This document shows positions 7,478 to 50,392 of a DNA stretch of 64,000 nucleotides, in pieces. The stretch lies in assembly GCA_973895155.1 (NCBI GenBank), contig OZ316892.1:4112410-4176409 (forward strand), read 5' to 3'. A program made the translations under genes and the position numbers. A model generated the notes under the pieces. It had not been told where the DNA came from and did no database searches. It saw only the letters and a program-made list of their open reading frames with translations. Position 1 is the stretch's first letter. Each line of letters opens with the position of its first letter. This DNA is from Marsupella aquatica. Taxonomy: Eukaryota > Plantae > Marchantiophyta.

Positions 7478-7821
7478 TGTTAGATATTGCTCTAGTCTTG
7501 TGACTCATGAGCTAACCACAGTTAGTCTAACTCGGGTTAGGACTTAGCTAATGTTAGTGGTAGTGTTGTTGTGTATATAGCCAGGGCTGATGCCAGACCC
7601 TGGTGGAACTTAGGCTCATTGTTACGGAGCTAGTTGAGAGATAGGGAGAGCTTGTGCTGTGGATGTTTGGTATGGCCGGTCGGCCTAGAGTGCAGTAAAG
7701 CTCTTGTGTGTTCCCGTGGACGTAGCCTCATGTGGAGGTGAACCACGTATCTCTCTGTGTTGACTATTGTGCGTTGGATGGTTCATGGGCTTGCCGTTAC
7801 GAATGTCGTCTATGCTCAACA
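7478..7821 (+). repeat. Copia 5' LTR (344 bp)
   Basis: TGTTAGATATTG...TATGCTCAACA; matches 31023-31370 with about 11 substitutions and a 4-bp indel by my count. Confidence 0.97.
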
Positions 7822-9319: not shown

Positions 9320-10457
9320 ATGAGTGACTCGGAGGATATTGGAAGAATTGGCGTCGGTGGAGCTTCAGGATCGCGATGGTCAGACGGAGAGTCTGAGGAA
9401 GAGCTGCTACCGTTTGAGGAGGAACTAGTGACACCGGTAAGATCATCGGTGCGGCGTGCAATGGAGGAAGCTGTACTACTACCAGAGCTGTTGGTAGTGG
9501 GGAAGAAGAGGAAGATGGCTAGATTTGGAGGAGTGAAGTTTGAGGTGGAGAAGTATGATGGTCATACTGATTACTTGCTCTGGGAGAAGCAAGTGAAGGG
9601 TGTTCTACGTGCCATGGGCTTAGCTCATCTGCTTTCTTTGCGAGAGCAGTATGATGAAGAGGAGGAGATTTCTGTGAGATAGTGGAGACAGGAGCAGGTG
9701 ATTGCTGTCAACGCAGTGATGCTATATCTCAAGCCGCACATCATCAAATAACTAGATGATTATGCGGATTGCACGTCACTATTCAAGGCTCTAAGAGAGA
9801 AGTACTACCGGAAAGATGTGTCAGACCGGCTGTACAAGAAGTCTCTCTTGACGAGCCTCAGGCTCAAGGAAAGGAGCAAGATGCAAGATCACTTGGATGA
9901 GTTTGACAGTCTAGCGGTGGATCTGTCAAACCTGGGAAAAGGAGTTGAAGATGAGGATAAGGCCTTGCTTTTGCTAAGCTCCTTACCGCCGTCATATCAG
10001 GGCTTGAAATAGGTGCTCTTGTACAGAGATCTAAAGTCCATTTTGTATAATGAGGTGGTGAGCTCTTTACTGTCTGATGATGCTTAGAAGAAGCTGGGTC
10101 AATCACAGACAGCATCTTCTTCTGGCAGTGCACTGAATGTGAACCGTGGGAGAGCAGCGCAACGCTCAAATGGACAGAACAGGTGTAGATCTACATCACG
10201 GGGGAGATCTAAATCCAGAGGAAAATCACAAGAGAGAAAGCCTCTTGCATGTTGGAATTGTGGCAAGCCTGGCCACATGAAAAGGGATTGTCGAGTAAAG
10301 GTCCCTACTGCATCTGCTAACGCGGCATCGAGCTTGCATGAGGTAGATTTACTCGATGATGATGACATATTGTGATGCCAAGGTTATCCTCTCAACGTAG
10401 TGTCAAATCCAGGTAGTGATGACTGGATTCTAGATAGTGCATGTAGTTTTCACATTT
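9320..10457 (+). pseudogene. gag: Copia gag, zinc knuckle and start of protease, with stops
   Basis: KFEVEKYDG..YLLW (Tnt1-like N-terminus), EDKALLLLSSLPPSY, CWNCGKPGHMKRDC knuckle, DWILDSACSFHI protease motif at 10421-10456. Confidence 0.93.
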
Positions 10458-11053
10458 ATCACTATATTCATTAAAACTGAAATTATAAATGATATAGGGA
10501 AATTTGGCGATTTAAAAACATAGTTTTAGGCATGAAAATTGTAAGTTTGGAAGATGAAAAATGAAAATTCAAGCATCATTAAATGTAAAATTGAGGACAA
10601 AAAATGAAATTTTGGGAAAATAAAATATTAAATTGGATGATATTAAAAAATATTTGGGTGATAAAAGTGTTCATTTGGTTGGAAAATAGATAGAATCTAG
10701 TAATAACATATAAGCTTGGATAGCATCTATATTCAAAACATTTAGCTTGAGTAAGATATCTAACTAAGCACCAATACAATGGAATGACTATATTGTCTAG
10801 ACAAAGTTAACTAGGATGATATCCAACCTACTAGACTAGAAGGAATGAAATGACATCATTTTCTAGAATTAAAATATACTAAGACAAATAAAATAATAAT
10901 TATAAGAAAGTCCATTCAATAACTTTGAGAGATCATAGAGTATTAATTTGATTGTCTTGTTATCTCACTTTAGACAAACGCATGGAAATCAACTCGACCC
11001 TCTTAATCACAAGTCATTTGAGTGGAGACTTGTAACCTACGAGTTCTATCAAT

Positions 11054-14000
11054 CTACTCATCAATTATACCTTCCATGTAAATTTTGAGAGTTTTCAAAA
11101 CATTCTTAGAAATTGTCAAACCTCTATCCATAATATTTTGTTCTTTAGCACCTGACTTAAACCCATACATTGCAGAATTTGCAAACTGCCAACTTTGAGT
11201 AACATTGTCAAACCCAGGATCCAGCTCCCAAGTCTTAGTGGTTTGAAAGTAACGTTCATATCGAACATCATCCTTTGCATCATGCTTACCATGTTTAGGC
11301 CTCCACCATTGTACTTGGAACATAGGAGCATTCCTCTTAGGAATGCTCTCAATAGACATTGAAGAAGACCCTTCAATATGTTGCAAATCTGTTGAGGGAA
11401 CCTCATGGTTTGGATCCACACCACCCAAAGCTTGAACCTTTGCCATTTTCCTGTTCCCATTCATCCTCTGGACGTAAAAATACAAAGTGACCTTCTTGAA
11501 TATCTTGTAGAGGAATCCACCTTGCAGGTTCTTGCTCTTGTCGTGCACCAACAAAGGGTGCAGCTTGATCTTCCATCTCTTCCATGTACTCATTTTGAAG
11601 GTCCATCATCTCTGGATTTTGATAAGGTTCACTTGACGGCTGAGATGTCCCCAAAATCATCTTGTAACCTGTGCCATGGTTAGTCTTTGGCCAAAAATCA
11701 GTTGTCAATGGCAATTGTCTTTCCCCCTCCCCTTCTATTGTAAGTTCCTCGGACAGTGCTTGCACAAGATTCTTCCAATATTTGACCAGAGGAAATCTCT
11801 CTCGATATGCTGCAGAGGTCTCATCCTTACAACTTTTCTTCAAGAAATCAATATAGCGATTAAGGAATGGGATGATTTCTCCAGCCTTCTTTTGTACATC
11901 CCCAGATATAGGTTTTGCAAATGGTTGGCCTTCCGGTAAAATGAGCGCATTTGTGATGGGATTAGTTCTCCAAATGGACCTCCCCATTGCCGGAAGCCAA
12001 GGTTGCTTGACATGTGCTTTATATTGATACACTGGCACATTATCCCTCATGGAGAAAAGAAATGCCACTGGTTTTGAGTGACCTTGTATCTCTTTCACCT
12101 GGAAAGTTTTCAAATACTCCTTCTAAGATGCAACCTCTTGAATCAATCGTGGTACAGGATGAATGCTTTCACACTCCCAAACCTCAGCCATCAACCCCAA
12201 GAGGGTAGCAACCTCTTTGTATCTGACTTGTTTGGATACTTGAGAAAATAATGCATCCACGTCTTCATGGGTGTGGCCAACCATGAGGAATGACATTTGC
12301 ACAGTTTCAAACACCCCCTGCTAACAAGCTCAATGCAAAATGCCATCACATATTGATTTTTGTTATCTTTCCCTGAATTGTCCATCTGCAACGTTAGGTG
12401 CCTTGGTAAGGGCTTGAAAGAGCCCCTAGTAGTCTCAGGATCATCCTTAGAACCAACATCCACTGTGCTTGACTTTTTAGTCTCCTGACCATCTTCAATG
12501 CCTTGAAATCGAACAATTGAAATATTTTTGGGTTCCAAGTAACCGGCCAGAAATGCTTCAAAGTCTAGAAGGGACTGAAATATTGGCCTAGTTGCATTCC
12601 AATTCAATCCTTCAAGAAGGTCTCCAATTTTGTCTCCTGTGTAATCTTCCAAATCTTAGAGGCATTTGGCCAAAGATGTCACGGTAAAGTCTGCATCTCC
12701 AGGCCAAAGTCCAGTCAAACTAAAATGTGCATACACTCCAGGATCTCTTCCATGGGTTAACATCCCAGTAAGAGCAATAGGCAAAGGCTGACCACTACCA
12801 GAGAGGGATTTTGGAGTGGGGACCAACTTGGGGATCCAAGTCTTGGCTTGATCCATCTTATCATGAATAATGCAAAGATAGTTTTGAGGATCCTTCTTTG
12901 CAAGAACCCTATGAGCATAGTAAACATATCTTCTTGACATTTGTTCACGAAGATGTCGCGCTCTTTTCTCTTCAATCTCTGCACGCTCTTTTTTTCTCTT
13001 CTCCCGCATCAATTGATCTTTGAACTCAGTGCAAAACGTGCACTTAGCAAATGCACTTCCCTTGTGAAAGTCAAAATTATCAAATGAGTTTTTCCAGATG
13101 TTGTACATAGTAACTTCAGTAACCTTAGCAAACCCATCTAATTCCATCTTGGTAAACACCTCTTGGAAAATCTCCTTCTTAGTAAAACAAGATGGGAGCC
13201 GATATTCAATAGTGTCAGTGCCGTTGGACCCACCATAGGGAAGATGTGGCATTGGTTCCCCATTTTGGATTAAAATGGACTCCAACAAGGCGCGAGCGTG
13301 CAAAGTGCTTGATCGTGTCTTCCGTTGTGGAAACCAATTGTGCAACCAGCTTCGTATTGATTTTTGTAGTCATAGTACTTTGTTGTACTGAACCCATGCA
13401 TTTTAATAAATGCATCTTTACAAACCACACGTCCCTTTAGAACAAAAAATCCCTTTCTCTTGACTTGCTCCTCTCTACACCCAAAGAGACTAAAGATGTG
13501 ACTTGTTTTGTTGTCACTTGACATTCCATGGTATTCCCTCCTCATTGCCTCTAAGTCCTCCCTGCGCATGTTCAAGCAACACTTCAGCTTGCAACAACCT
13601 TCTCTTTGGATGGAATCAATGGACTCCTCGGTAATTTTCAAAAGTGCCCTCGACTCCAAATGCCTTTTCTTCTTCTCCTCAAGATCAACTTTTGTCCTCC
13701 TCATGAAATTGTATGGTTTTTTTGTAGGTTTACCATCACCATCTGAATCCGGATCGCCCTTAGTTTGACCCGACTCCATCCACTTCTCTGAAACTTCCTC
13801 AAGGATATCCCCAAGAAACCTTTGAGACAAAATCAATAGAAGGGATTTGATTTCCCACCTCACCAAGCCAGGGGTACCAACACGGATATTTGGAAATAAT
13901 CCAGGTTCATTGATATTCACAACAACAACACCAACATGATCTGCACCAAGAAGTTCATCGTCAATGGCACCTGTTTCAAATGGGACCGTGATAACACCTG

Positions 14001-14755
14001 TTGCAACCTTTCGACAATGAGAAGCGTCATACAAATCAACCTCCTCCGCCATCCAGTTGGAACGTAGTGTAAAATCTTTTAATGGAAGATCATTGAAAAT
14101 ATTTGAACTACCAAACATGCCAAAATCTCGTAGAGTGCCCTTTCTAGAAACATGCGCAACATCCCAGATAACTTAGGTATGCAAGGCCTCTTCTATTGTA
14201 TCAGCTCCAAGGTGCGAGTATGGCAATTTTTGATTTCCCTTAACAATATCAGATATTCTTATACTGATGCAACCAACCCCGAGTCTTTCAGTATGACAAA
14301 TATCCATCGGATTTGTCTTGAAAATGACTCCATTTGCAACCAACTGATCAAAAATGAACATCTGAACTTCATCTCCTTCCTTGAACACGTCCTCTTCAAC
14401 CCTTGCATCAATTTTGGATTTATCATTTCCAACATCTCCAGCCAAAGAGAAATCATCGACATTGATTCTTCGACGCTGAGTTGATGACCTCAAGTATGCC
14501 AATGCACAATCCCAAATCACGCAGGAGTCAATTGCCTCAGCCAATGTAGAAAATTTGGGTGAAGGAAATGGAAGTTGATGCGATCCATCAAAACACTTTT
14601 TGATCAATACCCCAATTTGATTATCCCCTAGATAAATGTTATGTATAGTATCCTGGGGGTCAATCTTTTGAACTATCCCAATTGCCATTTCAAATCCATC
14701 GATCACCAATGACACTTCATCCCCTCATGTAAAATTGATCATGATAGCAGACTAT
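11054..14755 (-). pseudogene. Sola-like (DUF7869-type) DDE/D transposase, ~1200 aa, with stops and frameshifts
   Basis: Consecutive minus-strand ORFs give CCKLKCC, VCKDAFIKMHGFS, FAKCTFC, IIHDKMDQ (D1), LQMDNSGKDNKN (D2) and FLMVGHTHEDVDALFS (D3). Probable splice acceptor near 14756. Confidence 0.8.
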
Positions 14756-14859
14756 CTGTATTCAAATAAAGTTAGAAATTGTTAAGTTCCCCATGTTACA
14801 ATCATGTTTCAAAATCTGGACTCTCCTCCAAAAAATATTGTAAAATCACTCAAAACCCT

Positions 14860-15240
14860 AAACACATTCAAGTTGGGTCGAACTTATTCCGACCCTCTGA
14901 CAACAATATGTCTTAAAACGATTGAATTGGCTAAACATTTACAAGTCGGGTCGGAATTATTTCGACCCTCCTCCAACAATGTCTTAAAATGATTGAATTG
15001 ACTAAACATTTACAAGTCGGGTTGGAATTATTTCGGCCCTCCTCCAACAATATGTCTTAAAATGATTGAATTTACTAAACATTGACAAGTTGGGTCAGAA
15101 TTATTTCAACCCTACTCCAACTATTAAGTTGAAATTATGTCAAAACTATTCGTGAAACTATCTTGCTTATGCTTTTATATACCAGATTAAAATGCTAGTT
15201 AAGATGACATAGTCAAGTCGACACGAAATAATTCCGACCC
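14860..15240. repeat. ~70-bp tandem repeat x4 with an internal hairpin, plus one inverted core at ~15224-15240
   Basis: Each unit holds GGGTCG(G)AATTATT(T)CGACCC; CGAAATAATTCCGACCC occurs further downstream. Confidence 0.85.
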
Positions 15241-16996
15241 ACTTCTAGAAACTATGTTAGTAATCACACAAAGGGGTACAGTAAGTTCTACACATGCTAG
15301 AGTGTGGATAAAAGTCTAGAAATGAGTAAAGTATATGATCTAGAACCTAATGTGTAAATCTTAATCTAGGTTTGGCTTAAAGGAATTGAATTAGATGCAG
15401 TTGAGCTACTACTTCTAAGATAAATAAATAAAATCACTAACTTGCTCTGCAATATATCTCTACCCACCCTTGTACAAGCTAAATGGGTACCTAGGATGCC
15501 AACATTGTAACTCTTAGCACCACAGTGCTCACCAGTGCCCTTACCAAACCTTGCATTCAACCATGCGGACCTAAACAAGGCACTCGGACAGAGGAGAGTC
15601 AGTGACCGTACCAATCACTGTCTAAATGACAATGAACCAAAAAATGGATTGTGGGAGGTCTATACTTAGTTTGAGAGGCAAAAAACCCACACATTACCCA
15701 GCACACGAGTGGACACCAACAGATTGGGCACGGGTGGATCAGGCACGCACCCAGCACACAAGTAGACATTGGATAGGGTGTCAGCCAATCACTCACGAGT
15801 GATAGGTGAGTTGCAAGCACACACCGCTGACAGCTTGGAAGTTTAAAATTGGTAGGTGAGTCGCGAGTGGTCGTGAGTGGTCACGCCATCACAGGTGACT
15901 CACGAGCACATGCAGCAAGGAGGATCTCCATCATTGGCGTGCATTGATGCCTCCGTATCCTCTCGGATCCTTGCCTCCTCAGACTCCTCACTCGCAGGGG
16001 GTATAGGAAGGCAGGCCTTGCGCTTGAGGTCTCACTTCCTTGCCTCCCTCTTGCCTCCTCTCTTTCCTCCTCTCCGGGCTCCTCTCTCGTCTCCTCACTC
16101 CTTGCCTCCCTCTTGTCTCGCTCTTGGTGTGAGATAAGGATGTTTATAAAAGAAGGGTTAACTAACCATAAATTTTAGAATTTTTACGTTTAAGATCTTA
16201 AATAATGCTGAAGAGGGACCTGAAGACTACTTTGAAGTGTTATGAGACTTTCAAGCCCATCTGAGGTCAACCCGGATTGATATTAGAGAAGGAGGATCGA
16301 CCCGGAACTTTTTGTTATAAGCCTGGAATGAGATAAAAATCTTATACCGAGACTCTACTCAACAACAGCTGTCCATTGCCAAAGTTTTTAAAACCATAAG
16401 TCAAACACAGGCACGACCACAGTCAAATCCGGATATAAGGAAGGAGAGTCGATCCGGCCTCTCACACCTCTCAAAGCCGAACTTAGTAAGTTTTGAGCTC
16501 CCGAGTGCATTAGGCTGTTTAAGCAATAGAGTGAGGAGGCTCTACCCTTTTGGTAGAGGATCTTGGGTCCGGATTATAGGACCAATCTTGCATTGCATGA
16601 TGAGAGCCTGGATATGAGGGTACTGACTGATTCGTTGTGAGGGGAATGCCTACTCCACCGCTGGAAGTGAAGGCAGGAATTTTGAGATCCTGATCGTGGA
16701 TACATCGGTTGTGAGAAGGGCGGCCAGGTCGACCCGGACATCACCATTGCAGGCCCGATTGAGTCCAGATTTTCCCCACGTTAGATGACCCTGCAGTGTG
16801 GTTGACGAAAACTTGATGCAATTCTTCCGAAACGATTTTCAGTTGATCAGAAACGCTGTGGCCAGGTCAACCCGGACATTTCTACCAGTGGTCGACATCG
16901 AAGAGATTGAATAGTCTGAAGTCGCAACATTGTAGAGCTTGCCGTAGAGGAGGCAGAACAGTTACCAAAAATCAATTTTCTGCTTCCAGAAATCCT

Positions 16997-18678
16997 ATGG
17001 AGCAAGGGGCGGATCCAGCCGGAATGTCTACTTCTCGCGTCTCTAAGGGGCATTCAACCTCAACATCACCTGCACCTACTCCGGTTAAAGCCCCTGTGAG
17101 ACGATCGAAGAGAAAGGAGGTCCCTATTGCCATGAAAATTCTGAGGCCAACTATTCCGGACAGTGAAGCTGAGAAGGTTAAACTGAGGGAGTCTTTGCTC
17201 AGGATGGGCTGTGAGTCTCTGATGGAGCTACCTTGGAGTTATCAAAGCGAAGATATGATCAGAGAGATCCGATCTAAGGAGTATCGGGCTGAGTTTAAGG
17301 ATACCTCCAGAGTCCATCACCTGAGCGATGGACTCAGATGATGATTGCAGGAGCTTTTGTATTGGAAGATGAAGGAGAAGGTCCAGTGGGGAGAGCTGTC
17401 AATCTAATCCTTCCTTACTTCAAAGGAGCCATCAACAGTAAGGACGGGTTCAATGTTTCTAAGTGTTTGGATCCTGATCTGAGACGAGTCTTCAGCTTTC
17501 TGCTACCCCTGCTGTACCCTGAGAAGCCAAGAAGAGTTACTGTTGGAGTTGGCTCTACCATTGTTGTTGCTTACAAGGGAGAAAGAAAAGTCAACTGGGC
17601 TAAGCTTATCTTTGATTTGATAAGGAAGTTGGTACAGAACCTATCCAACAAGAGTCCTACTCCCCTCTCCTGCTACCTGGTACATCTATATAGCTTTGAA
17701 GGAGTTTTGTTCAGAGAGGAGAAGAAATTACTATTGGCCAAGTACAACTTCATCAAGTATGGAGAGACAGATCCAGATATCACCCAGGCCACCTCTAATG
17801 ACAGTGAGGATGAGGAGCCAGCAAAGAAAAATCCTCGAAAGACCCGGTCTGCTGCCCGGAACCTCGATCCGGACTTTTCCGACCCGGCCTTCGTCGACCC
17901 GACTGAATTTCCGGATGCACCCGGCCATGCCTCCCTAGACACCCTAGCTGATTTCCAGATCATCTCAGACACATTCCAGAAGGTGAAGAGGAAGACCACT
18001 GTAATGGAGAAGGCCATCACTGACATTTCTCAGAAGTTAGGAGTGAAACCAGGGCAGATTCTTGAGAAGATCTCCACCATGAGTGATGCCACAGATAAGA
18101 GGAAGTTGGAGAAGGAGAATGAGTTCCTCAAGAAGAAGGTATCTGAACTCAAACAGCAGTTGGAAAGGAGTAAGAAGAAGAATGAGCTTGAGCATACTCT
18201 CCAACTCAGTATCACTCAATCTTTGGATCTGATTGAGCCTTTGACTAAGATAGCTTCTCTGGATCTTCTTAAGGCCCAAATTTATGATGAGTATTTGGCC
18301 AAGAACACCACACCCATCCTTTTCTCCAAGATTAACCATTTAGTGGTAGATGTGAGTACCAAGGTGGATGATGCACTTACAGGCCTCTCAAAGACCTGTG
18401 AAACCTTAACGGAGATGAGTGACTTGACTACTGAGGAGCTATTAGCTGATACTGAGATTCCTCCCTTTACTACCAGATCTTTCTCTCCTAGTCCTCATGA
18501 AGGAGTCTATTCCACTGGCCCCTCATCACCCCTCAACCCTCCTGGTTTCCCCACTCCCAGTACACACTTCCACTCCCATTCTTACACCTATTCTCATGAC
18601 CCAAGTGCCCATCAGGAGAACATGGATATTGACCCGTCCATCCCTTTTACCACTGGCCAGCAAGGAGTTTTCCTTTGA
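16997..18678 (+). pseudogene. Retrotransposon accessory-type ORF (~560 aa over one frameshift; coiled coil, Ser/Pro-rich tail)
   Basis: ORFs 16907-17341 and 17338-18678 abut. FLLPLLYPEKP..KVNWAKLI..PLSCYLVHLY block followed by a coiled coil; lies upstream of an LTR-like segment and PBS. Confidence 0.55.
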
Positions 18679-18959
18679 CCAGAACCCCTTGCCATGGCTA
18701 ACCCTGAGGAGGTTCCTTCCCAAAAGCTAGGACCAGAATAGAGTTATATTTAGAGAGTTAGAGCCACATTAGTTTAGACTTAGAAATATCTATATAGATT
18801 AGTATATGACTAAGTAGACTCCAATATTTTGTTGATGTATCCATTGGAGACTCTACTCCATTTTTGACTAGGATAGTTCGCTTTTATTTACATATTTATT
18901 TAGACTTGGGTTTTGAAGAGGCATGTCTTTTCATAATCTCCACTTTTAGTACAAAAGGA

Positions 18960-19760
18960 GGAGAACCCAAAGTCAACAGGGAGAGAAAACATACATTTTG
19001 ATTTCCTCATTGCCTTTGAAGGAATCTATGTCTTTTCTTCCCTTCCTTTTTACCATGGTTGAGTAAAAGGAAGAAGTTTAGCAACCCTTGAGTTGTTGTG
19101 AAGTGTTCAATGAATGCTAGAGTGTGCCTTAATGATATTGAAAGATCAATGAGATTTGTGATCAATACATTTGGAAGATTCACCAAAGAGGAAATTGACA
19201 TTTGCACAAAACCCAAACAAGCAATCTTAAGGATTGTAGGAGAAGTAAACCAATTCGAGTATCCTAGTACCGTCTTAAGCAAGACCAGAAAAGTGTCCCG
19301 AGTTGATTTACATTGTTGTCTTCTAAATTCAATAGATGGAGAAGAGTTGCTACAAAAAATCAAAAAGCATAGAAAATGTTGATTTCTGAATCTTAAATTA
19401 AGCCATAATCCTTATTGAAGGAGTGGTGATGGTCAGAAATTCAATTCCCTTGCACTTTGAAAACTCCTATCTACTCTCTCTCTAGTTTCAATTTTTGTTA
19501 ATTCTAGTCTTTATTATTGCACTGTGAATCCTAAGGATTACCCACTTGAGTTTGTGGTTAAACACTTATGTTAAGGAGATCACTAGAAATCTCTCCAACC
19601 TAAGAATGTTGGTGTAAACTTCTCAAATTGTGTTAATTCAGTCTTTTTGATTTTATCCACTCCTAACCGGAACGAAATCGAGTTGTTAAGGAGTAAATAG
19701 TCATTTATCTCTTTATCACCTTGCTACATACTACACCCATTTTGGCGCCGCTGCCGGGGA
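18960..19760 (+). mobile_element. Putative Ty3/gypsy (Athila-type) LTR-like segment ending in CA at 19739, followed by a tRNA-Asp PBS; left boundary uncertain
   Basis: CA-TTT-TGGCGCCGCTGCCGGGGA (19743-19760) has one mismatch to the complement of the plant tRNA-Asp 3' end. Purine tract at ~18953-18965. Confidence 0.6.
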
Positions 19761-19881
19761 GTAACTGAGATCGGGAGACCTGCCGCGACAGTGGATGTCA
19801 AAAGGAGATCAACAAAAACAGTCAAGAAGTAACGGCAAAAAGGTACTTGATTAAGGAAAAGAGGCTGGAACCTCCTAAGTT

Positions 19882-20769
19882 ATGGTGAGGAGAAGTCGAC
19901 CTCAAAAGAGGGAGAGAGCCCAAATCAAGTCAAGAGAGAACCAAACCCAAAATATCAAAGATGCTACTACACATTCAAGAGCAACAATTGTGAGAAGTAG
20001 TGGAGGAAGTTACTTTTGGGGAGGAGAATTGATTAAAGTTGATTCATGGGACACGAATGTTTTTCTTGATTGTTTGTTGATTTTTAGAAGATTTGTAAAT
20101 GGTAGATTCGAATTGGTGGAAGCCACTTATGATGAAAAATTTGACAAGGATTGTATTCCTGATTTATTGAGGGACCACCACATTGAAGAGGAAATCCTAG
20201 ACATAGAAATTGAAGAGGAATTAAAGGAAGCATTGGCAACATTGAAAGGAGATCAATATTGGAGAAACAAGCTTGACAATGTACTAGTGAAGTTCTATGA
20301 GAATTCAAATGTACTTCTAAACGAAGAGAAGCCTGTTGTGACTTTGGAAAGGCAAGAGTTGATAGGAACATTGGACCATTATAATAGAAACGGTTGGATT
20401 CTACTCAAATGGAAGGATTGGAGGGCAGGAAAACCCTGTTTTCAATGGAGTTCCCATTTGCCAGAAATGTTTGATTTGACCAATGTTTTAGTATTGAAGA
20501 GACTTTGGATTGATGATGGTGAGTATAAGTTATTACCCATCAAGGAGGAGAATGATTTTGAATTTCTGTTAAAGAAGCACAAGCACCATACTATTTGGGC
20601 GTCTGAAACAGAGGAAATCAAAATCAAGGAGACGTTAGCCGTATTACATGAGATTAGTGAACCTTGGGTAGATACACTTGATTTCCTAGAAAATCTATTG
20701 AATGGATATAGGACGTTAGTAGAGCAAGTGGTGTTGAATAATGGATTCTTCCAAGTAGATTTAAATTGA
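19882..20769 (+). CDS. Unknown 295-aa ORF just downstream of the Athila-type PBS (retroelement 5' extra ORF?)
   Basis: Uninterrupted ORF in AT-rich DNA; no family recognised. Confidence 0.45.
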   Translation: MVRRSRPQKRERAQIKSRENQTQNIKDATTHSRATIVRSSGGSYFWGGELIKVDSWDTNVFLDCLLIFRRFVNGRFELVEATYDEKFDKDCIPDLLRDHHIEEEILDIEIEEELKEALATLKGDQYWRNKLDNVLVKFYENSNVLLNEEKPVVTLERQELIGTLDHYNRNGWILLKWKDWRAGKPCFQWSSHLPEMFDLTNVLVLKRLWIDDGEYKLLPIKEENDFEFLLKKHKHHTIWASETEEIKIKETLAVLHEISEPWVDTLDFLENLLNGYRTLVEQVVLNNGFFQVDLN

Positions 20770-21327
20770 TACCCCAAAATGCCGAGACCCCAACCAAGAT
20801 CACTTGGTAGTTTTAGAGTTCAAAACATTAGGGATTCTTATTTGCGAACGAGAGTACTCAGTCTAAGAGGTAGACGAGGGATTCACTGGTTATCAATCAC
20901 GTGGTGGGAAGGAGATCTCCTACATTTAGTAATTCTCAAACTGAACGGAAGGATCAGTGGAGAAAGATACATTGTTATTTCAATTTCAGAATTGGCCAGA
21001 GACCTCATGACCAGGAGGAATGATAGGAGAAGAGATCAGCAGTAAGAAGATTGTCTTTTTGGAAGAGGAAAAAGGGAGAAGAAGAGACCCGGACCAATGT
21101 CCAACCCGGACCCGGACATTTGTCCAGGTAGGCCATTGTCCGACCCGGATCAGAAGCCGGGTCTGAACCGTCGTACCCAAAAGGCACCCGGAAACTCAAG
21201 AGTAGGAGGTAAACGTCGTGACCTAGGGAACCTCAGGGTGGACCCTCGGCAAGAAAAAGAGGAGTATGTCCAGGAATCTCATGAGGATCGATTCATTCAA
21301 TTATTCCAATCAGATTTATGAGTTGGT

Positions 21328-21610
21328 ATGTCAAACAAAGGAAAGTCAAATTGGAGAAAGAAGAGTAACGTTGACTCTGAGGACGAATCATCAGGAGTGA
21401 CATCAGTGCAGCCACGACAATTATTTCCTGATTCACCACCTGTTGGGATCGTTTCTGATCGACTAACGGAACTCCAAGATCGATACGGAAAAGGGAGTAT
21501 TGAAAACCCTACCTCCAGTCGTCCAACCTACATTAATTTAAGATCTGGACCTAAATTGGTACCACCAACCCAGATTGGTAGGGGATATATACCCACGGGA
21601 AGAGGATGTC
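21328..21610 (+). pseudogene. Possible truncated gypsy gag N-terminus
   Basis: Low-complexity start with an INLRSG motif, downstream of the PBS; ends abruptly. Confidence 0.3.
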
Positions 21611-21699
21611 AAAAGTCTACAAGTTTAGACAGATTGAAGACCACATGTCAATGTTAAAAATATGATGTTGACCATTTTGTTTTCAATGTTTCTTACCAG

Positions 21700-24600
21700 A
21701 AAAAAATCTTGAGAAGCCGGAGTTAAATATTATGGATGAGGATATCAAGGACTTTGTTTTCCCTGACCAAGATACTCCAGGATTTAGATGGGCACTAGAA
21801 GTTGGGGTGTCGGCGAAAGGCAGTCTCTTGATTTGTTTCAAGGGCCTCACAAGTCAATTGAATGACCGCAAGACAATTGTTACTCTAGGTCTAGTCGTCC
21901 TTGTGAACACGGACAACAACCGCAATGCAACAATTATTGTTGAGTCCAATGAGAAATCTCAGTGGATGAGACTTCTGGTGCCAATAAAACTCTACTCGAC
22001 TTTACTGAATGTTGAGTGGATGGCTTGATTGGAGATAAGCGTAGCTGATATGGGATTCTTCCCAGATGGAGTAACAATTGATCAGATGTTTGAGAAGACG
22101 CATTCTCAAATAAGTGGAGTTGACCTAGTGTTTGGATTTCTCTACGTAAAGAAGCACATGCATGACAATGCGGACAGTGTGGACCCTCCGTCTACTTGGA
22201 TAGTTGAAAGGATGATTGAGAAGGCACATTTTTCATACGAGCAAGCAATCGACAAGAGTTTCATTTTTTGTCCAGAGTTTCAAGAGGCCGCATGCCGGAC
22301 GTGGATTTCAGAGATGAAGAAAAAAGAAGCAAAGCATAAGGCAAAGGAGAGAAAGAAGACAATGGAAAGAAGCGCGCAATCAAAGACAGAGAAGAAATGA
22401 AAGCTTCGAGAGCCGGTTGTTCAACAAGAGAAACAATATGGGAGTTCACGCCGTAAGAAGATGGCTTAAAAAAATGAAGATGATGAGGGCCCCCAAAAAA
22501 AGCAGACAAAGAAGGCAAAGGTTGCAAAATCAAAACCAATGTCAGCGTCGACTTCAAACTTTGTCTTGCATCCAGAGGATGATATGTGTCCGACAGAAGG
22601 ACCCAAAGAAGATGATGTGCTCAAAGGCCAAGAGGTTTTGCGTAATATTGAGCAGTATTATACTTTTGGCATCCGCAAAGTTTTTGATATTCCTGTAAAA
22701 AGTATTATTCCGCCATCGGCCATTTTTGTATATCGAATGTTCAATCTTTTGCATGCAATGGAGATATCAAAGTCTATGATGAAAAACCCTGGATAGGAAC
22801 CATAAGTTGCTGATTTGATTCTGTATCACGAGAGCACTAAATAGTTGCTTCTTATGACAACACACCTCAAGATAGGAAAGAGTTTTTGATTGGTGTGAAG
22901 AAGCATGAGATCCAATTCCTTGCCATCAGTGGCCAGCATTCTGCAAGAGCTGCCCAATGGATCCAAGGGGGGGCCGAGACTGACGCCAAGCTGACAGATC
23001 TTGCCAACAAACTAAAGTATAGGAAAGCAAGGATCCTATCTGACCTCACTCCGAAGACAATTTTGGTTGAGCATTCAAGTTTATCGAATGCTGTCAATGA
23101 TACTATGCAATTTAAGTCTTGTTTTTTAGAGACTATTGTTCATGCACGAAGGCAGTTTGAGGAGTGCGGGAAACCGCCGCGTCCAAGGATTGGGACCAAT
23201 CAAAATACAGACAGGAAAAACTATCAGGTACATGTTGGAGCAACACAAACTATTCTTGATCCGCTTTGTTTAAAGATTGTCAGTGGTAGAGGTTTGCCTG
23301 GCCCCAAGGGCGAGACTGCCTTGTCTTGTTTTCCTTGGTTAGAAGATTAAAGCAAATGTTTGCCTCGCCCTCAGGGCAAGGTAACCTAGACTAGTCTCTC
23401 TAAGAATAATTCCCTAGTTCCATTTCAGTCAATTGCGGTTAGATGTAGAGGTTCGCCATGCCCTTGGGGCGAGGCGGCTTAGCCTGTTTCAAACATAGGT
23501 ATAAATTTTCTAATATATGCATTGTACCCTGAAACTAATGTCAAGTCCATTGGATATGCAGGATTGGTTTGCCCTTGCAAAGGTTACAATGGGGAAGTCA
23601 AGCCTAAAGAGCATTTATTGGTTACTTTTTGCCGAAGATGAGCTCTTTGAATTATGGCGGAATGTGTGTGCAAAATGGTTGAGTGGGAAGCTCCAAGATG
23701 GGGCTGGTGGGTATGGAGGGCCAAGACCCCCAAAATTGATCACTCCCGGTACCTTCGATGCTTTGAAGGAGAGATTAGTAGCAAACAGATAATTGAGATC
23801 TTGAAGGACGTTGAAGAGGAGCGTGCCTTGCTGAAGAAGGATATCACCAACAAATCAGAGCTTGTCGCAATGGGAGACTTGGCCCTTACAATCAAGATAA
23901 TGTCCAAATTGAGAACAGTCATTATTGGCTATTTCATGGAAAAGTATCGTGAGAAGTTTCCTGTTGGCACATCTTGGGAGTCTCTGGTGATATTGTTGCC
24001 TTCCTTGAAATCTGAGCTTGAGATGACAAAATTGAGGAGAGCAGCGGGTGAGGTTTACCTCAACAATTCATTGAAGAAGAATGTGGTCAAGGAGAGTTTC
24101 CCACAAAGTCGGATGGTCAGACTAGATGGGGTGTATTGTAAAGAATTTGGTGGGATTGGTCGTTCTCGCACGGAGCCTTTCTTGACATTTTTTAGTGATA
24201 ATTTGATGAAGACGACCGTGCCGGAAATGCTACAAGAGCCTTCGCCTTTGTGTCCTCTTGCCATTGTTGACTTCAGTAGGCTCCGACAACATGTTTGGAC
24301 CGATGCTGAAATTATTGCATTACTACAATACATTGTGGATCTTCCAAGAAATCCAACAATTGTTGTTGTCATGACTGTGCATCCGGGGCCACTTGCTACA
24401 AACATTTTGAGTGCCCTTACGAAATTGCAACATGAAAAGGGAATGGACATCCACGTTGACTACGGGAGCTATCGACGGAGTGATACACCAGTTCCAGAGG
24501 GCTTACTTTTCAGTTGTGGTATGGAGGAGATAATCTTTGAAGGAATCACCACTGAGGAGAAATTTGATTGGAAGCAAGTGTTCAGGCCTGGATTTAATTG

Positions 24601-27196
24601 CCAATTTTCTTACAATTCGGCGATCGACCCTAATTTCCAAGTGGAAGACAAGACGGAGAAGCGAGATAAGAATAAGAGTAAGACAAGTAAGGAGACAGAG
24701 ACTGAGTCAACTTCGGCATTTCACATTGGAGATTTCTTACGAAAGGCTCCCATGTTTGAGATGGTGGGAAGTAGAGGTGGCTTTGTGAATATTCACGCTA
24801 AGCCAAAATGTATACTGCAGAGTATTATTGATTTTTTTTTGGCTGAAGGGGAGACTATACTTGACTTTTTCTCGGGAGGACAGGTTATGAAGGTGTCATT
24901 GTTGTGTTTCAGAGAATGCTTTGCGTATTCAGACACTGAGGATGAATATGATTTCACTCAGGCATATGGAAGGGTTCTCTGCGAGAAATTTCCTTCCATA
25001 ATGAGTGACCGGATGGGCGGTTCCAAATTTGGTAGAGCCCGTGATGGGGTTTCCAAGCATGTTGGCGCCAAAGAAGGCGTAGACCAGGGCGAAGATGAGA
25101 TTGAGGAAGGAGAATTGGGTCATGACACAGACGATAGGGTCACCCGAATTTTGGATGAACGTGGAACACAAGTGGTAGGTATTCCCTACTTTGGTGTGGG
25201 GTTGGCCGATTTTGTGGGTCAACCTGAGGGCGACCCACCAAGAAATCCCTTTGCCGGTGTAGAGAATTGGATGCACCAGGCGGACCCAAATCTTACATCC
25301 TCCACATCAGACGCACATTGGAAGGCAACCGCAGATGATCGAGGCAATATTGACGCAGTAGAATTGGGAGAAATGTCAGACATTGCGCTTGCTAAGGAGG
25401 ATGATCGTCAAGTACCTGAGATCGCTGCAAATGAAGAAGAGAAGGCAGGTGCTTCAAATCCTCCCCTGTCTCCTCTATATTGCTCATCAGAGACTAAATT
25501 GGTTTTTACAAGTGCTTCTACAGGAAGCCCCGTAGTATTATCATTTTCACAAAATTCTGGATCCGAGATCGACAGGACTGGATATATGAAAACAGTCGGT
25601 CCTGCAACTCATTTTATATGGAGAAATGGACCAAAGGTTGGAATGATAGAATCACTAGACGATGCTCCAAAGATAATGGCAAAATCAGATTACAAAAAAC
25701 TGAACTTGAGACTGAGCCCAGTTTTTGCACCCCCATCCTTTGAAGAGCAACTTCCCAGTGGTATCAATTCCGAGATACAGAGTGTTCTAGGTGATCAAAC
25801 AATAGATGAATTTGGGCATTTTAGCATTGGAAATTATTAGCCCTTTCTTTGGTTCTTGGTATTTTAATGACAATCTAAGCTTTGTCTTTGTAATAATATA
25901 CTTTTTTACAGACCAAAGTTCCATCGTAGAATCTCCTTCCTCAAAGGATTTTGTTGGCATTCCCTCGAAAAGCGTTGCTGTGGACGAAGGGTTTGACCCA
26001 GGTATACTTTGGATCTAAAAAATGACAAGTGAATGTAATTAATGTTTTTCTAGGAGGGTCGCCCCAGGGTCGTTCCTCTCTACTTCAAATGCTATAACAA
26101 AGTTTGTTTGATTTCAAATTTTGAGAGTTTTCCTCCGTAGTAATTGTTTAAACTTTGAGTCGCATTGACTAAAGGCTTATTTTAATGTTTCCAGAATTCA
26201 CTCCAATACTACACTCTCCGATCCGGCAAAAGCTCTTGGTTCTTGACCTTAACAAGATTTGTTGGGATTGCATTAAGACCAGAAGCTCAGGACCATGGCA
26301 AAATCAGACAAGTTTACGTGGTGTGCACTGGGGGAGACGTGGAGGGTTTAATTTCATGTATGTGGAGCGCCCATACCTCCACGAATTTCTATATGCAGCT
26401 TTCATGGTTTTTGACGTCGCAATTTGGACCTGTGCAAGGAGGCCAAAAACAATGGAGTTAATGGAGTTGATTTTCACTGAGGAGGAGCGACAGAAGTTCA
26501 AGTTTGTCTTTACTCAAGAAGATACCTTTGATAGTTGCATCCAAAGGCCAGATATAACAGATGGGAAGGCCAATTTACTTCTGAATAATTTGCAAACCAT
26601 TTGGGACCGTTTTCCAGAAAAATATGACGCTTCTAATACAGTTCTTATTGATGATTCTCCATTGAAGGCATTTTTGAATTATGACGTGAATGGACACTTT
26701 TTTGCCCGAGATATTATGGCCGTATCTTTGCAAATTGAGAAAGGCTTACTGCGTTCAACATTATATCACTGTCAACAATCCAAAGTGGTCTGTTTTCAAT
26801 TTATTAACAAGCAAGGAGGATCATGCTGCCATCTATGCTCTTTTGGAACAGAAGTGGGCAGATTGTCGTTGTATCCATAAGGAGTTTGGAACCATCTTGG
26901 ATGTGACTCCTGAAGAGATTCCTTGGGACGGAAAGAACGAGGTGCAGCATTACCCACCACTGGAGACGTGGACCACGGATGAGATCGAAGAAACTGCAAA
27001 CGCAATACTTGGAGACAACTATTCTGGTCCTCAAAGACAAAATAGAAGGCATTTTATTTGGAAAGTTCTCAGAACTAGGGATCTCACCAATAAGTTTAAG
27101 AACCACCATGCGAGAGATACTTGCAACCGTGACATCCGCTATGATAAATCAGGAAGCAAACTTTCTTGTTCAAATGAGTTTTGTCTTGATCATTAG
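21700..27196 (+). pseudogene. Spliced cargo gene: unknown N-term, ParB/Srx-like, N4/N6 DNA-MTase-like, acidic linker, FCP1/NIF HAD phosphatase-like (disrupted copy)
   Basis: Predicted exons ~21700-23227, 23562-25790, 25912-26001 and 26195-27196 with phase-compatible GT-AG introns. Motifs FLAISGQHSARAA, KPKCILQSIIDFFLAEGETILDFFSGG, KLLVLDLN..ERPYLHEFL..VAIWTCA..NTVLIDDSPLKA. Confidence 0.7.
23296..23475. repeat. Small inverted-repeat element inside the cargo-gene intron
   Basis: GCCTGGCCCCAAGGGC and GCCCTTGGGGCGAGGC are inverted with one mismatch; a related motif lies at ~23362. Confidence 0.5.
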
Positions 27197-27664
27197 GAGA
27201 TAGGGTTGCTCTAGTGCCTACCCTGAATTGTATATTCATATTATGTCAAAGGATATGTTTTGAACATGTAGGATAAAGTAAATAATTATGATATGCTTAG
27301 TGTGAGGCTCTCTCACTGGACTGGACAATTTAATAATTATATAGTGGGTCAATCTCATTTTGACCCTTGATTTATGACCATATATATTTTTTAATTTATA
27401 GATGGTCTGAGTGGTATTGGCCTCTGATTTTTGGACTAAATCAAATTTACTCTAATTTTTAAATTAATTAGAATATATGATTTAAGTTATTATTAAACAT
27501 TTGGGTGAAAAAAAACAAAATTTTGGGCGTTCAAAAGTGTATATTTGGGCTGAAAAAAATTAACTTTTGGGAATGCTTTAATAGAAATTTGGCTTGAAAA
27601 AAAAACTTTAGGGTTCATCTTATGGACTTTTAAAAGTACAATTTTAATGAAAATAGTGATATTT

Positions 27665-30600
27665 GCTCTAGGAGAGATTTTTCAGTTCTTACACGGTTTC
27701 CAACGGGTCAGTGTTGATGGGAAATGGAATCCCATGTCAAGTTGTTGGACTTGGATCTGTAAGATTTCAGATGTTTGATGGTGTTGTAAGAACGTTGAGG
27801 AATGTGAGACACATTCCCAGCATGATGAAAAATCTCATTTCACTTGGAGTTTTAGAAGCAAATGGCCATCAGTGGAGTTATGCTAATGGTGTCCTTCAGG
27901 TTTCAACTGGTACTAAAGTTGTATTGAAGGGAAAAAGACATAGCAATCTATACATTTTGGAGGGCAGTGTTGTTTGTGATGAAGCCAATGTAACCTTATC
28001 TCACGAGGAGACGGCCCGGGTGTGGCACTTCCGTTTGGGCCACATGAGTGAAAAAGGTTTGGCTATTCTTCAGAAGAAAGGATTACTTTCTAATTTGCAA
28101 TCTTGTAAGTTGGAATTCTATGAGCATTGTGTGCTTAGAAAGCAGCACATGAAACCCTTCAGAGTTAGAACTCACACCAACAAGGAGGTACTTGAGTATG
28201 TACATAGTGATGTGTGGGGTCCAGCCCCTACTCCCTCACATTCTGGATGATTATACTATGTCACGTTCATAGACGATTACTCAAGGTATGTGTGGATCTA
28301 CTTTCTACACAGTAAGTCTGATATTTTTGCCACTTTTAAGGAGTGGAAAGCCCAAGTTGAGAATCAGATTGGTAACAAGGTGAGATATCTTCGATCGGAT
28401 AACGGCGGTGAATACAGTTCCGGGGAATTTGGAATGTATTGTAAGGAGCAGGGGATTACCCGCCATCTCACAACAAGTTATACTCCTCAACGGAATGGTA
28501 TTTCTAAGAGACTCAACTGAACACTATTGGACCGCTCGAGGAGTATGTTGAGTCAATCATGCTTACCACATGAGTTTTGGGCTGAAGCTGTCAACACTAC
28601 AGCTTATTTGGTAAATTTTTCTCCATCAAGTTCTATTGGATTCAAGACGCCATTTGAAATGAGGTACGGGCGTCTAGCAGATTACTCACATCTAAGGATT
28701 TTTGGATGTGATGCTTATGTGCTTACACCTTCCCAGCTTCGATCCAAGCTGGAGTCCAAGTCGAAGAAGTGCATTTTCCTTGGCTATTAGAAAGGTGTGA
28801 AGGATTATAGGTTATGGGATCCAGTAACCTGTAAACTAATTGTCAGTAGAGATGTGTCCTTTAATGAATCCAGATCATCAAAGGAGGGGGAGAGTTCTCA
28901 GGACTCCCATACTGACAAGGGGAGATCTCCCATCCCGGACCGGGTTGAGGGGGAGATTAGTCATGATGATGTTTATGACAGGAGAGATGGAGAAGCTCCG
29001 GGCTTGGAGCTGGTTCCTGTGATGGAACAAGAGGAGCATATTGTTGCTGGGGTACCTCAAATTCAGCCAGCAGCAGCAACAGATCAGCCTAAGTCATCTA
29101 CTAGAAGAACTTCCAATCGTTCTAGTAGAGCTCCTACCAGGTATGGTCAATGGGCAGACTCATCTAAATTAGATGACATTGACATTGCACCCGATGATGA
29201 TGATGATATGGCTTTGATCTTGGAAGAAGGAGAGCCTTCTTCGTACAGTGAGGCTTGTGCTTCAGAGCATAAGCATGAGTGGAATGCTCGGTGGAATGCA
29301 GCAATGCAGAGGGAGTTGCAATCTTTGAGTGACAACAAGACATGGGAGCTGGTGGAGCTTCCAAGAGGTCAGCAAGTGGTGGACAGCAAGTGGATTTACA
29401 AGTTGAAGGATAGTCCTTCAGAGGGTGGAGACAAGATCTACAAGGCAAGGCTTGTTGCCAAGGGGTTCACTCAAGAGAAAGGAGTGGACTACAATGAGGT
29501 CTTTTCACCGGTGGCTAAGTATTCCACAATTCAGATCTTGTGTCAGCTTGTTGTGTTTTTTGGTCTGGTGATGGATCAGATGGATGTTGTTACTGCTTTT
29601 CTCTATGGCAACTTGGAAGAGTTGATCTTCATGAGATAGCCACTAGGCTTTATGAAGAAGGGCCAAGAGAACTTAGTTTGCAGATTGCTCAAGTTCTTGT
29701 ATGGATTGAAGCAGTCTCCCAAACAGTGGAACAAACGGTTTGATGATTTCATGCTTGCTCAAGATTTTACAAGGATGGTGTATGATCCTTGTGTGTATAC
29801 AAAATCAGTCAAGAATGATGTATTTGGTTTCATCATTCTAGTTATTTATGTGGATGACATGCTGATTGTGGCTAAAGATCAATCTGAGGTTGACAGTCTC
29901 AAGGCAAAATTGAGTGCTGAATTCAGGATGAAGGATCTTGGTAAGGCCAAGAGGATCTTAGGGATGGAGATTTTTAGGAACTCTGAGACTGGACAGTTGT
30001 GCTTGAGTCAAGGCCCGTATGCGAGGAAAGTACTTGCACGATTCAACATGGAGAACTGTAAGCCAGTGAGTATTCCTTTAGCTTCACATTTCAAGTTATC
30101 ATCGGCTTTCTCTCCTACGGATGCTGTGGAGAAAGGTCTGATGGCTAAGATTCCTTATGAGAAGGCAGTAGGCAGTGTGATGTATTTGATGACTTGTACT
30201 AGGCCTGACTTGGCCCTAGCGATGGGCAAGGTTAGCAAATTCATGTCAAATCCAAGGAATGTTCATTGGGAAGCTGTGAAGTGGATTCTCAAGTATGTGA
30301 AGGGAACACAGGACTATGGATTATTATTTGATAATAGATCAGATAGAACGTTGGTTGGCTATGTAGATTCTGACTATGGAGGCTGTCTGGACACAAGGAG
30401 GTCTACAACTGGGTTTGTATGCACTCTTGGAGGAGGATGTATCAGTTGGAAATCTACCTTGCAAAAGTGCATTTCTCAGTCTACTACAGAAGCAGAGTAT
30501 GTTGCAGCAGTAGAAGCAGCAAAGGAAGCAATTTGGTTGGACAAGTTGATCGCGTAGATGGGTTTAGAGCATGCCAAAATGACTCTAAACTGTGATAGTC

Positions 30601-31022: not shown

Positions 31023-31370
31023 TGTTAGATATTGCTCTAGTCTTGTGACTCATGAGCTAACCACAGTTAGTCTAACTCGGGTTAGGACTTAGCTAATGTT
31101 AGCGATAGTGTTGTGGTGTATATAACCAGGGCTGATGCCAGACCCTGGTGGAACTTACTAAGGCTCATTGTTACGGAGCTAGTTGAGAGATAGGGAGAGC
31201 TTGTGCTGTGGATGCTTGGTATGGCCGGTCGGCCTAGAGTGCAATAAAGCTCTTGTGTCTTCCCGTGGATGTAGCCTCATGTGGAGATGAATCACGTATC
31301 TCTCTGTGTCGACTATTGTGCGTTGGATGGTTCATGGGCTTGCCGTTACGAATGTCGTCTATGCTCAACA
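31023..31370 (+). repeat. Copia 3' LTR (348 bp)
   Basis: TG..CA copy of 7478-7821, followed by TSD CGAAC. Confidence 0.97.
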
Positions 31371-40924: not shown

Positions 40925-41659
40925 CTACAAACTTCCTAGTGCCTTAGAAATCTCGGAGGTAACGTCTTTCGGAGATTTCTCCGCATGAAGATGGGCCACT
41001 ATTCCCTTCCGTTCATAATAGTCAACCACAGGGCTCGTTTGCTGATGAAAGGCCTCCAGCCTGCTCTTGAGAACGTCCGCATTATCGTCCTTCCTCTGGA
41101 TCAGCTTCTCACCGGTCACGTCATCGATCCCGGCCTTCTTGGGTGGCGCGAACTTTGTGTGGTATGATCGTCCACTGGCAGGGTGAATCCAACGACCTGT
41201 AATGCGCTCTTCGAGCACAGAATCTGCAATCTCGAAATCCAAAACCTTATCTATCTTGGTGCCCTTTTTCGCAAGCATCTCATCCAACTTCTGAGCTTGG
41301 ACCACCGTGCGAGGAAACCCATCCAGAATGAACCCTTTCGAGCACGACGGACGCTTCAGGGCTTCGTCAATGATGCCAACGACGAGATCGTCACTCACGA
41401 GCTCTCCCTTCTCCATGGCCTTCTTCGCCACCACTCCAAGAGGAGTTTGTGCCGCCACCGCGGCCCTCAGCATGTCTCCAGTGGCAAGATGACAGAGGCA
41501 GTAATCTTCTTTGATCACGGGAGATTGAGTCCCTTTTCCGCACCCGGGTGGCCCGATGAGGATCAATCGCTTCTCAGACTTTGGAGCGCATCGCAATCGC
41601 CTCAACACCTCGGTCATGAGGCTATCAATGGGCACGTCCTCCAAATTTGGCGTTGCCAT
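40925..41659 (-). CDS. ADK: Adenylate kinase (plant AK2/ADK3-4 type), single exon, 244 aa
   Basis: P-loop [49 protein letters not shown]; complete and uninterrupted. Confidence 0.97.
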
Positions 41660-50062: not shown

Positions 50063-50392
50063 GAAATGGGACACAGGCATTTGATTGTGATCACTTTGTG
50101 GTGCTTGCATCAGCCAATGCCTGTTAAGTGGATACCATAGGGGCAAGAGACGTCCTAGGAGTAGGATGATCGCCACAAAGGTTGGGAGGGCAAGACGAGG
50201 GACTGCGGTAGGCGATATCTTTCACAGATATTGGGTCTCCTCACATGTCTCAGGTCTCTTGCAAAGGTGTGGCCCAACCGGCGTTCAACATAGTTAGGGG
50301 TCTCTTAGCTTCATTGCGGGTACATACAAAATTCTCATAGGTTTTGTGGGTTGGATGCAGACAATGAAGGGGTTTAAGAGAGAACCTGGACC

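Follow-up and report, generated by a model that had tools for sequence, protein, structure and literature searches.

We analysed a 64,000-nucleotide stretch of the genome of the liverwort Marsupella aquatica (GenBank assembly GCA_973895155.1, contig OZ316892.1, positions 4,112,410 to 4,176,409, forward strand; hereafter the window). It contains a 17,203-bp cut-and-paste DNA transposon, probably of the Sola1 superfamily, with an accessory gene encoding a protein with a predicted ParB-like fold and a predicted fold of the beta-class amino-methyltransferases. The catalytic motif of these enzymes is missing throughout the protein family, and catalysis has likely been lost. The best explanation, to which we give about an even chance, is that the gene encodes a non-catalytic accessory protein which binds its own element and keeps it expressed or mobile. 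A sequence-only reading of the same DNA had proposed a single protein combining ParB-like, methyltransferase-like and FCP1-like phosphatase domains, which marks DNA or modulates transcription, possibly against silencing.

The carrier is a multicopy DNA transposon inserted in a Copia element

The carrier has two defined ends, a target-site duplication and a transposase gene on the strand opposite to the accessory gene, and it occurs in multiple copies. Its features outside the accessory gene are listed below.

10458..27660, no strand: whole transposon (17,203 bp), delimited by its pair of terminal inverted repeats (TIRs), the flanking ATTT and the ends of contigs
10454..10457, plus strand: left copy of the 4-bp target-site duplication ATTT
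27661..27664, plus strand: right copy of the target-site duplication ATTT
10458..10479, plus strand: left TIR, core of 22 bp
27639..27660, minus strand: right TIR
11054..14724, minus strand: degraded transposase gene (DUF7869), its frame interrupted by stops and shifts, divergent from the accessory gene
14875..15240, no strand: five imperfect palindromes of 21 bp, the first four 71-73 bp apart, candidate sites of the accessory protein (or of the transposase)
15300..21640 (approximate bounds), plus strand: internal segment of a different repeat, with open reading frames (ORFs) that we take to be LTR-retroelement-like (LTR, long terminal repeat)

A TIR pattern derived from the two ends matched the window twice, at these ends only (0 matches expected, 100 shuffles), and position 10458 is the exact start of contigs from the public sequencing runs X1, X3 and X4, which are ~12% diverged from the window. 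The left and right flanks of the transposon form one continuous Copia frame, in which gag ends around 10450 and pol resumes around 27661; the LTRs of this host element lie at 7478-7821 and 31023-31370. Since Copia is split at 10458-27660 and its flanks join in frame, the transposon was inserted in Copia, and the accessory gene cannot be Copia cargo. Copia contigs of runs X1 and X6 depart from the window sequence at 10457 and enter the right-flank sequence, which corresponds to an empty site. An alternative parse of the ends, with a 2-bp TT duplication and termini one base longer, also fits at this one site, but the contigs begin at 10458. The DNA of the window is repeat-rich and includes TTTAGGG runs; an Rfam scan of 10400-27700 gave no match.

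The ATTT on both sides fits the AWWT target duplication, a hallmark of Sola1 (PMC3845634), the TIRs also agree with this superfamily, and Sola1 is recorded for Physcomitrella (PMC9033089, table). The transposase region matched Pfam DUF7869 at 12191-12655 with an expectation value (E) of 2.4e-10. By its motifs the transposase may be Sola-like, and DUF7869 may be linked to Sola; a literature search found no paper on DUF7869. On the TIRs and the AWWT duplication, the carrier probably belongs to Sola1. A CACTA label, suggested by the letters CACTA within the TIR, was rejected because the terminus begins two bases earlier and the duplication is 4 bp; the Pfam Transposase_23 match reached only E = 0.043.

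The accessory gene is predicted to encode both folds in one spliced frame

21700..23227, plus strand: exon A, encoding an N-terminal domain without known family, a basic linker and the ParB/sulfiredoxin-fold domain (~22650-23110)
23228..23561, plus strand: intron 1, phase 0, with three GC-rich palindromes at 23295-23476
23562..25840, plus strand: exon B, encoding a helical domain, the beta-class methyltransferase fold (~24170-24990), an acidic linker and a C-terminal module; landmarks are a frameshift at 23753, the kept Asp at 24269, DFFSGG at 24863-24880 and a stop at 25838-25840
25912..26001, plus strand: 90-bp segment resembling an exon, flanked by strong splice sites and sharing the frame of the NIF exon
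26195..27196, plus strand: NIF/FCP1-family domain of the haloacid dehalogenase (HAD) type with a C-terminal extension, motif I DLNKI

The GT-AG pairs that the sequence-only reading had placed at 23228-23561, 25791-25911 and 26002-26194 were all present, and their joins are in frame as it had stated. Reading from an acceptor at 21700 gives 1,615 codons with the NIF domain and 1,268 without it. Intron 1 is supported because a 32%-identical metagenomic relative (L001) shares it at the equal position and in phase 0 (109 nt there), the frames of relatives P0166-P0168 end at this position, and P0163 spans it; P0017 as well as P0163 continues through the position uninterrupted. The ParB and methyltransferase parts lie in one frame in P0163 (1,009 aa) and in the Riccia models P0090, P0102, P0133 and P0139; Calypogeia too is among the sources of intact relatives with this arrangement.

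Two parts of the protein lack a Pfam family: an N-terminal domain of ~220 residues upstream of the basic linker (21733-22400), and a conserved C-terminal module of ~130 residues (25430-25830), which ends in E-[IL]-Q-x-x-L-x(5)-E-[YF]-G-S. The palindrome at 23295-23476 in intron 1 has a further copy in the X1-contig sequence upstream of 21641; it could serve as another binding site or represent a dispersed repeat of small size.

The N-terminal part has a predicted ParB-like fold

The ParB-like motif described earlier is present, and its assignment to a family comes from relatives and predicted folds instead of Pfam, whose ParB families gave no match in any of 17 alignment members. When the ParB part of relative P0168 was modelled, the mean pLDDT (the confidence score of the prediction) was 70, with 73-96 in the core. 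The listed structural matches through rank 33 were all of the ParB, Noc, KorB or sulfiredoxin family; the best had E = 2.4e-3 and none reached 0.001. In the viral library, phage ParB proteins led the matches to the same model (best E 1.2e-4; five matches at E <= 0.001). The models thus support a predicted ParB/sulfiredoxin fold in the accessory protein. The ParB block is of the type S-G-[QA]-H-S, with Ser in place of the usual Arg, in 13 of 13 proteins that contain the block and also in the window. Canonical ParB CTPases bind nucleotide through a GxxR motif, which is absent from these 13 proteins and from the window.

The predicted methyltransferase fold lacks its catalytic motif across the family

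The KP and DFFSGG motifs, from which a methyltransferase had been proposed, are present as well, and the assignment again stands on relatives and the predicted fold: the large ORF of the window alone matched no Pfam family at E 0.1. Among the relatives, all nine close ones and 26 of the 50 others matched Pfam N6_N4_Mtase, mostly under the cut-off. A profile of 74 rows matched M.RsrI with E = 8.8e-9. The model of 24110-25012 had a pLDDT of 89, and its best Foldseek matches were all beta-class amino-methyltransferases, namely MboIIA and CcrM (E = 1.2e-8), M1.HpyAVI, PvuII and N4CMT. The protein is therefore predicted to adopt the beta-class fold, a permuted Rossmann fold with the catalytic block before the block that binds S-adenosylmethionine (SAM).

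None of 170 stored proteins contained [DSN]PP[YFW], the catalytic motif IV. At the end of the strand where it is expected, 40 of 42 rows carry Asp, and the next residues are L/F, T/S/A and R/H (D-[LF]-[TSA]-[RH]); both prolines and the base-stacking aromatic residue were missing in all rows. The lack of DPPY or SPPY, noticed before in the window, is thus a property of the family and not a quirk of a decayed copy. Motif I is altered too: DFFSGG is near invariant, yet one residue shorter than motif I of M.RsrI, with its Thr replaced. The position of the acid that binds the SAM ribose is occupied by A, S, T, V, C or P in 56 shown of 58 rows, with an Asp one position later in 17 of the 56. The K of the KP motif was kept in 60 of 63 rows. 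Since motif IV has been lost family-wide, it is likely, as far as the residues tell, that the accessory protein no longer catalyses methylation, and the proposed DNA-marking enzyme is not supported.

An unlikely alternative is that the amino-methyltransferase works through a non-standard motif IV and writes N4-methylcytosine (4mC) or N6-methyladenine (6mA) on its own element, as has been proposed for algal proteins. The complete beta-class fold, predicted with high confidence, the retention of the motif IV Asp, of the K of KP and of DFFSGG, and the existence in liverworts of a working 4mC enzyme of the beta class (bioRxiv 2021.02.12.428880) would agree with such an activity. The Marchantia enzyme, DN4MT1, however, carries TSPPY (bioRxiv 2021.02.12.428880), and in N4CMT and CcrM it is the proline carbonyl and the Tyr of motif IV that touch the target base (PMC10406627), that is, residues missing in every row here. 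The shortened motif I, its replaced Thr and the non-acidic residue at the ribose position also speak against an active enzyme.

The accessory gene is a conserved cargo, whereas the window copy is dead

The accessory gene is multicopy; 24-53% of its sampled words were present in six public runs under three organism labels. In the main contigs of run X1, the depth was 507-555 over the transposase, 474-515 over the accessory gene and 36-50 over the low-copy stretch 20067-21586; read depth does not equal copy number, and we take these values only as a sign that the transposase and the accessory gene are about equally repetitive. The multicopy sequence in the runs, together with the many relatives, rules out a captured single-copy host gene.

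The depth of ~15300-21640 relative to the gene shifts from run to run, the stretch 20067-21586 is roughly ten times shallower, and upstream of 21641 a different sequence is found in one X1 contig. Because the depth varies independently of the gene and the X1 contig differs before 21641, this segment is a separate repeat, which probably replaced the 5' part of the accessory gene. Its independent depth also rules out the accessory gene as cargo of the LTR-like segment. Two unannotated ORF regions lie at 16847-20769, with a primer-site-like sequence at 19743; they presumably resemble the accessory ORFs of a bryophyte LTR retroelement.

A representative protein search found 232 proteins at E <= 0.001, the best 150 of which were listed. 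The nearest named relative came from the leafy liverwort Calypogeia fissa (43% identity), and among 27 relatives looked up, all 13 with a species name were from liverworts (2 Calypogeia, 11 Riccia sorocarpa). Liverwort genes annotated as 'hypothetical' or 'FCP1 homology' are probably remains of such transposon cargo. In a metagenome scan, one of 10 loci was a true relative (L001, 1.8 kb, without flanks), and the other nine only weakly matched ordinary methylases of prokaryotes. Scans of genomes and viruses yielded five and two loci, respectively, all weak matches of the prokaryotic-methylase type; the four of these seven that were translated all had DPPY. The relatives form several clades, and although the proteins are only 24-47% identical, their frames stay open over 660-1,009 aa and keep conserved motifs. 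This conservation of open frames at such identities argues that the gene has a function.

The window copy contains five in-frame stops in exon A, all ahead of a frameshift at ~22850, as well as the frameshift at 23753 and a deletion at 26694, where it shifts frame and other copies have 36 additional bases. This copy is dead. The five stops and three frame changes, together with the fragmentary state of many stored relatives, would fit an inert passenger of no benefit to the element. Such a passenger is highly improbable, since motif-bearing open frames persist in several clades and the lesions at 23753 and 26694, at least, are absent from other copies in the runs.

Palindromes between the divergent genes suggest self-binding

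The 21-bp palindrome occurs at five sites and nowhere else in the 64 kb, with 0 expected by chance, and the array lies between the divergent transposase and accessory genes. Proteins of the ParB family bind palindromes and bridge DNA. We propose that intact copies would encode a ParB-fold and methyltransferase-fold protein that likely no longer methylates DNA, and that this protein would bind the five palindromes, reading the DNA through its ParB and helical parts together with the emptied methyltransferase fold. The bound protein may be a reader or scaffold that keeps the promoter region usable and shielded from host silencing, an outcome that would be analogous to that of VANC, the anti-silencing proteins of VANDAL elements. 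The ParB, methyltransferase and NIF domains all look non-canonical in the family, beyond the window copy alone, and altered motifs in all three domains point to binding rather than chemistry. As for the sequence-only reading, the gene is indeed a transposon cargo, and multicopy, and an anti-silencing or self-regulatory role would be a reasonable proposal, whereas the marking of DNA is not supported.

Several points weigh against a non-catalytic protein that binds its own element. The palindromes may be sites of the transposase. The replacement of the ParB Arg by Ser makes clamp-like loading doubtful, and the transposon context of the named relatives is assumed. The identification of DFSR as the equivalent of motif IV is drawn from the predicted fold and strand order, three profile alignments intended to map DFSR onto DPPY having recovered the SAM block alone or nothing. 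The conserved motif IV Asp and the near-invariant DFFSGG would also fit a working, non-standard active site, in which the Asp one place later might replace the ribose acid. Finally, a plant cluster representative of 1,673 aa in the Atlas (score 0.94, no common Pfam) and NIF-fused Riccia models keep a fusion with the NIF domain alive.

A transposition helper like TnpA of Spm, which binds internal palindromes and pairs or presents the distant ends with no effect on silencing, appears rather unlikely. It would suit a 17-kb element with short TIRs, a fixed cargo gene of a depth equal to that of the transposase, and the palindrome binding and DNA bridging known for ParB. The array, however, is internal, 4.4 kb from the left end, with no palindrome near either end, and Sola1 elements of 2-3 kb with a transposase alone are reported to be autonomous (PMC3845634).

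The NIF domain is linked cargo and probably a pseudo-phosphatase

The NIF/FCP1-type motif set read from the sequence was borne out by a Pfam NIF match (E 1.3e-11; 44.9 bits vs a cut-off of 21.8). The best solved relative was UBLCP1 (E = 7e-7) and the best NCBIfam model HAD-IIID, with all NCBIfam scores far under cut-off. HAD phosphatases share the catalytic motif DxDx(T/V). This motif is absent here, motif I being DLNKI in the window and DVEGL in three Riccia models, and by these residues the domain is probably a pseudo-phosphatase.

Whether the NIF domain belongs to the main product is a question separate from that of function. If it does, the main product would be a three-domain protein of ~1,600 residues in which NIF contacts phosphorylated RNA polymerase II, or a different phosphoprotein, at the element; this we consider doubtful. 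The three joins are in frame, the acceptor at 25911 requires some donor, and the base composition turns intron-like after 25790 (GC 0.29 vs 0.45, 49 bases). The donor at 25791 is nevertheless weak, with a score of 1.0 vs 4.8 and 3.9 for the other two on a rough matrix, and no alternative GT occurs before the stop at 25838-25840. Moreover, the residues beyond this donor (I-D-E-F-G) are conserved: 28 stored proteins match, and 26 of them end 3-17 residues after the Gly, the remaining two being a Riccia model that continues without an NIF match and a chance match. The Gly codon which the donor requires is missing in 7 of 21 distinct contexts. Many of the relatives' frames are calls on genomic contigs and would stop in introns too; thus, the argument against the join rests on amino-acid conservation, not on stops. 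An ATG near 25807 was rejected as the start of the NIF part, as a T-rich intron-like tract would be translated.

Among 50 scanned relatives, the NIF domain followed the methyltransferase part in three, all from Riccia, and two more entered its first motif. In a tree of the 39 of 74 rows with at least 190 aligned residues, four NIF-bearing models, which are gene predictions, fell within a separate clade (support 100/99), and the window fell in a starred set of 10 rows, six of which end at the I-D-E-F-G motif. No relatives of 1,277-3,645 aa were found among 2,637 candidates in what was a weak search. NIF lies downstream of the methyltransferase part in both clades, and its fusion to that part is predicted in one, in Riccia gene models. 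The NIF exon is cargo of the same transposon; in the window subfamily it more likely gives rise to a product of its own or to a minor splice variant than to a third domain that is always present. The single three-domain protein proposed earlier is therefore retained as far as ParB and methyltransferase parts in one frame with NIF downstream; it is doubtful as the main product of this subfamily, the junction from the methyltransferase exon through the 25791 donor not being confirmed.

Very unlikely is a more elaborate scheme, in which giant Sola1 elements of land plants produce, by alternative splicing, a three-domain protein of ~1,600 residues that docks on the palindromes through ParB, marks or flips a base at its non-standard D-[FL]-[ST]-R methyltransferase site and uses a dead phosphatase to retain phosphorylated RNA polymerase II. 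If true, the protein would switch epigenetic state and transcription of its own element, would be of phage origin and independent of VANC, and might be a second source of 4mC or 6mA in plants.

Other features of the window

At 58944-63633, a fragment of a CACTA tnp2 transposase is immediately preceded by an ORF with a SET domain (Pfam E 1.5e-5), and the opposite strand has a DUF4216 fragment; the locus could be another transposon whose cargo is related to chromatin, as with red algal PAG2 or HarbingerS. A nearly perfect long inverted repeat at 61511-62159 (244-bp arms, 98%) surrounds a short run of telomere-type repeat. An open, intronless adenylate kinase frame on the minus strand (40925-41692; Pfam ADK E 6e-59) stands amid repeats and is possibly a retrocopy. 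Helitron Rep/helicase fragments lie at 50378-54103, and tandem repeat arrays with units of 68 bp and 74 bp at 2386-4346.

Comparison with known systems

The accessory protein shares its predicted fold, the order of its motifs and its KP and DFF blocks with M.RsrI, MboIIA, CcrM, PvuII, rotifer N4CMT and Marchantia DN4MT1. Unlike these beta-class enzymes, it lacks [DS]PP[YFW], has a short motif I and contains introns in its gene, a long helical insert and an acidic linker. The nearest named neighbours in the Atlas were phage clusters of ParB_N with N6_N4_Mtase, at scores of <=0.8 that offer a lead only. The NIF part shares its Pfam family with UBLCP1-like and FCP1/SCP HAD phosphatases and differs from them in motif I. 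According to Iyer et al., ParB-linked methylases of phages moved into eukaryotes, and DIRS1 elements contain methylase domains that are inactive (PMC4738411).

A fusion of ParB and methyltransferase, which the sequence-only reading had regarded as a prokaryotic or phage architecture, has already been published on a giant Sola1 element of the alga Ectocarpus (PMC12477816). This element, Sola1-1_Ec32, is 21.5 kb long with a 4-bp target-site duplication and carries, opposite to the transposase, a 1,104-aa gene of ParB and N4C/N6A methyltransferase, for which its authors propose self-binding and self-marking (PMC12477816); its transposase best matches moss Sola1-1_PPa (PMC12477816 supplement). Both elements are giant and have the two domains in one frame opposite the transposase, whereas the window element has a land-plant host, a following NIF gene and a family without the catalytic motif; the likeness to the Ectocarpus protein is one of architecture by description, not of compared sequences. 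In red algae, the giant Plavaka transposons carry PAG2 and PAG3 as PF01555 methylase and ParB-like cargo, and in Bostrychia tandem inverted-repeat arrays beside ParB-like PAG3 genes are proposed binding sites (bioRxiv 2025.02.11.637652). These are EnSpm rather than Sola elements, and there two different genes encode ParB and the methylase, in fusions with a 2-oxoglutarate (2OG) oxygenase and a SET domain.

VANC of the VANDAL elements is likewise a transposon accessory protein with targets in its own non-coding tandem repeats (PMC5735166), and we use it as a functional model only, with no claim of homology. The VANDAL carrier is Mutator-like, and the function shown for VANC is proposed here. 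Few transposon proteins are known to shield their own element from silencing, and the available part of the Bostrychia paper cites VANDAL alone as a transposon with a self-protecting protein (bioRxiv 2025.02.11.637652). Neither Sola nor ParB is mentioned in the available part of a 2026 preprint on transposon regulators, and Sola is not mentioned in the Apopellia genome paper. Our literature search found no account of the gene in land-plant Sola elements or of the linked NIF gene, although Repbase, subscription papers or supplements may have one.

The design was thus already published for Ectocarpus, and the present analysis adds a carrier from a land plant with both ends defined, a catalytic motif that is missing from the whole family and the linked NIF gene. 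The algal proposal that such proteins bind and methylate their own element shifts accordingly for a plant family without the catalytic motif, in which the ParB and phosphatase motifs are altered too. As both ends, the transposase, sister copies of nearly identical sequence and a candidate site of short length are available, self-regulation by the element can be tested, for example in Marchantia or Physcomitrium.

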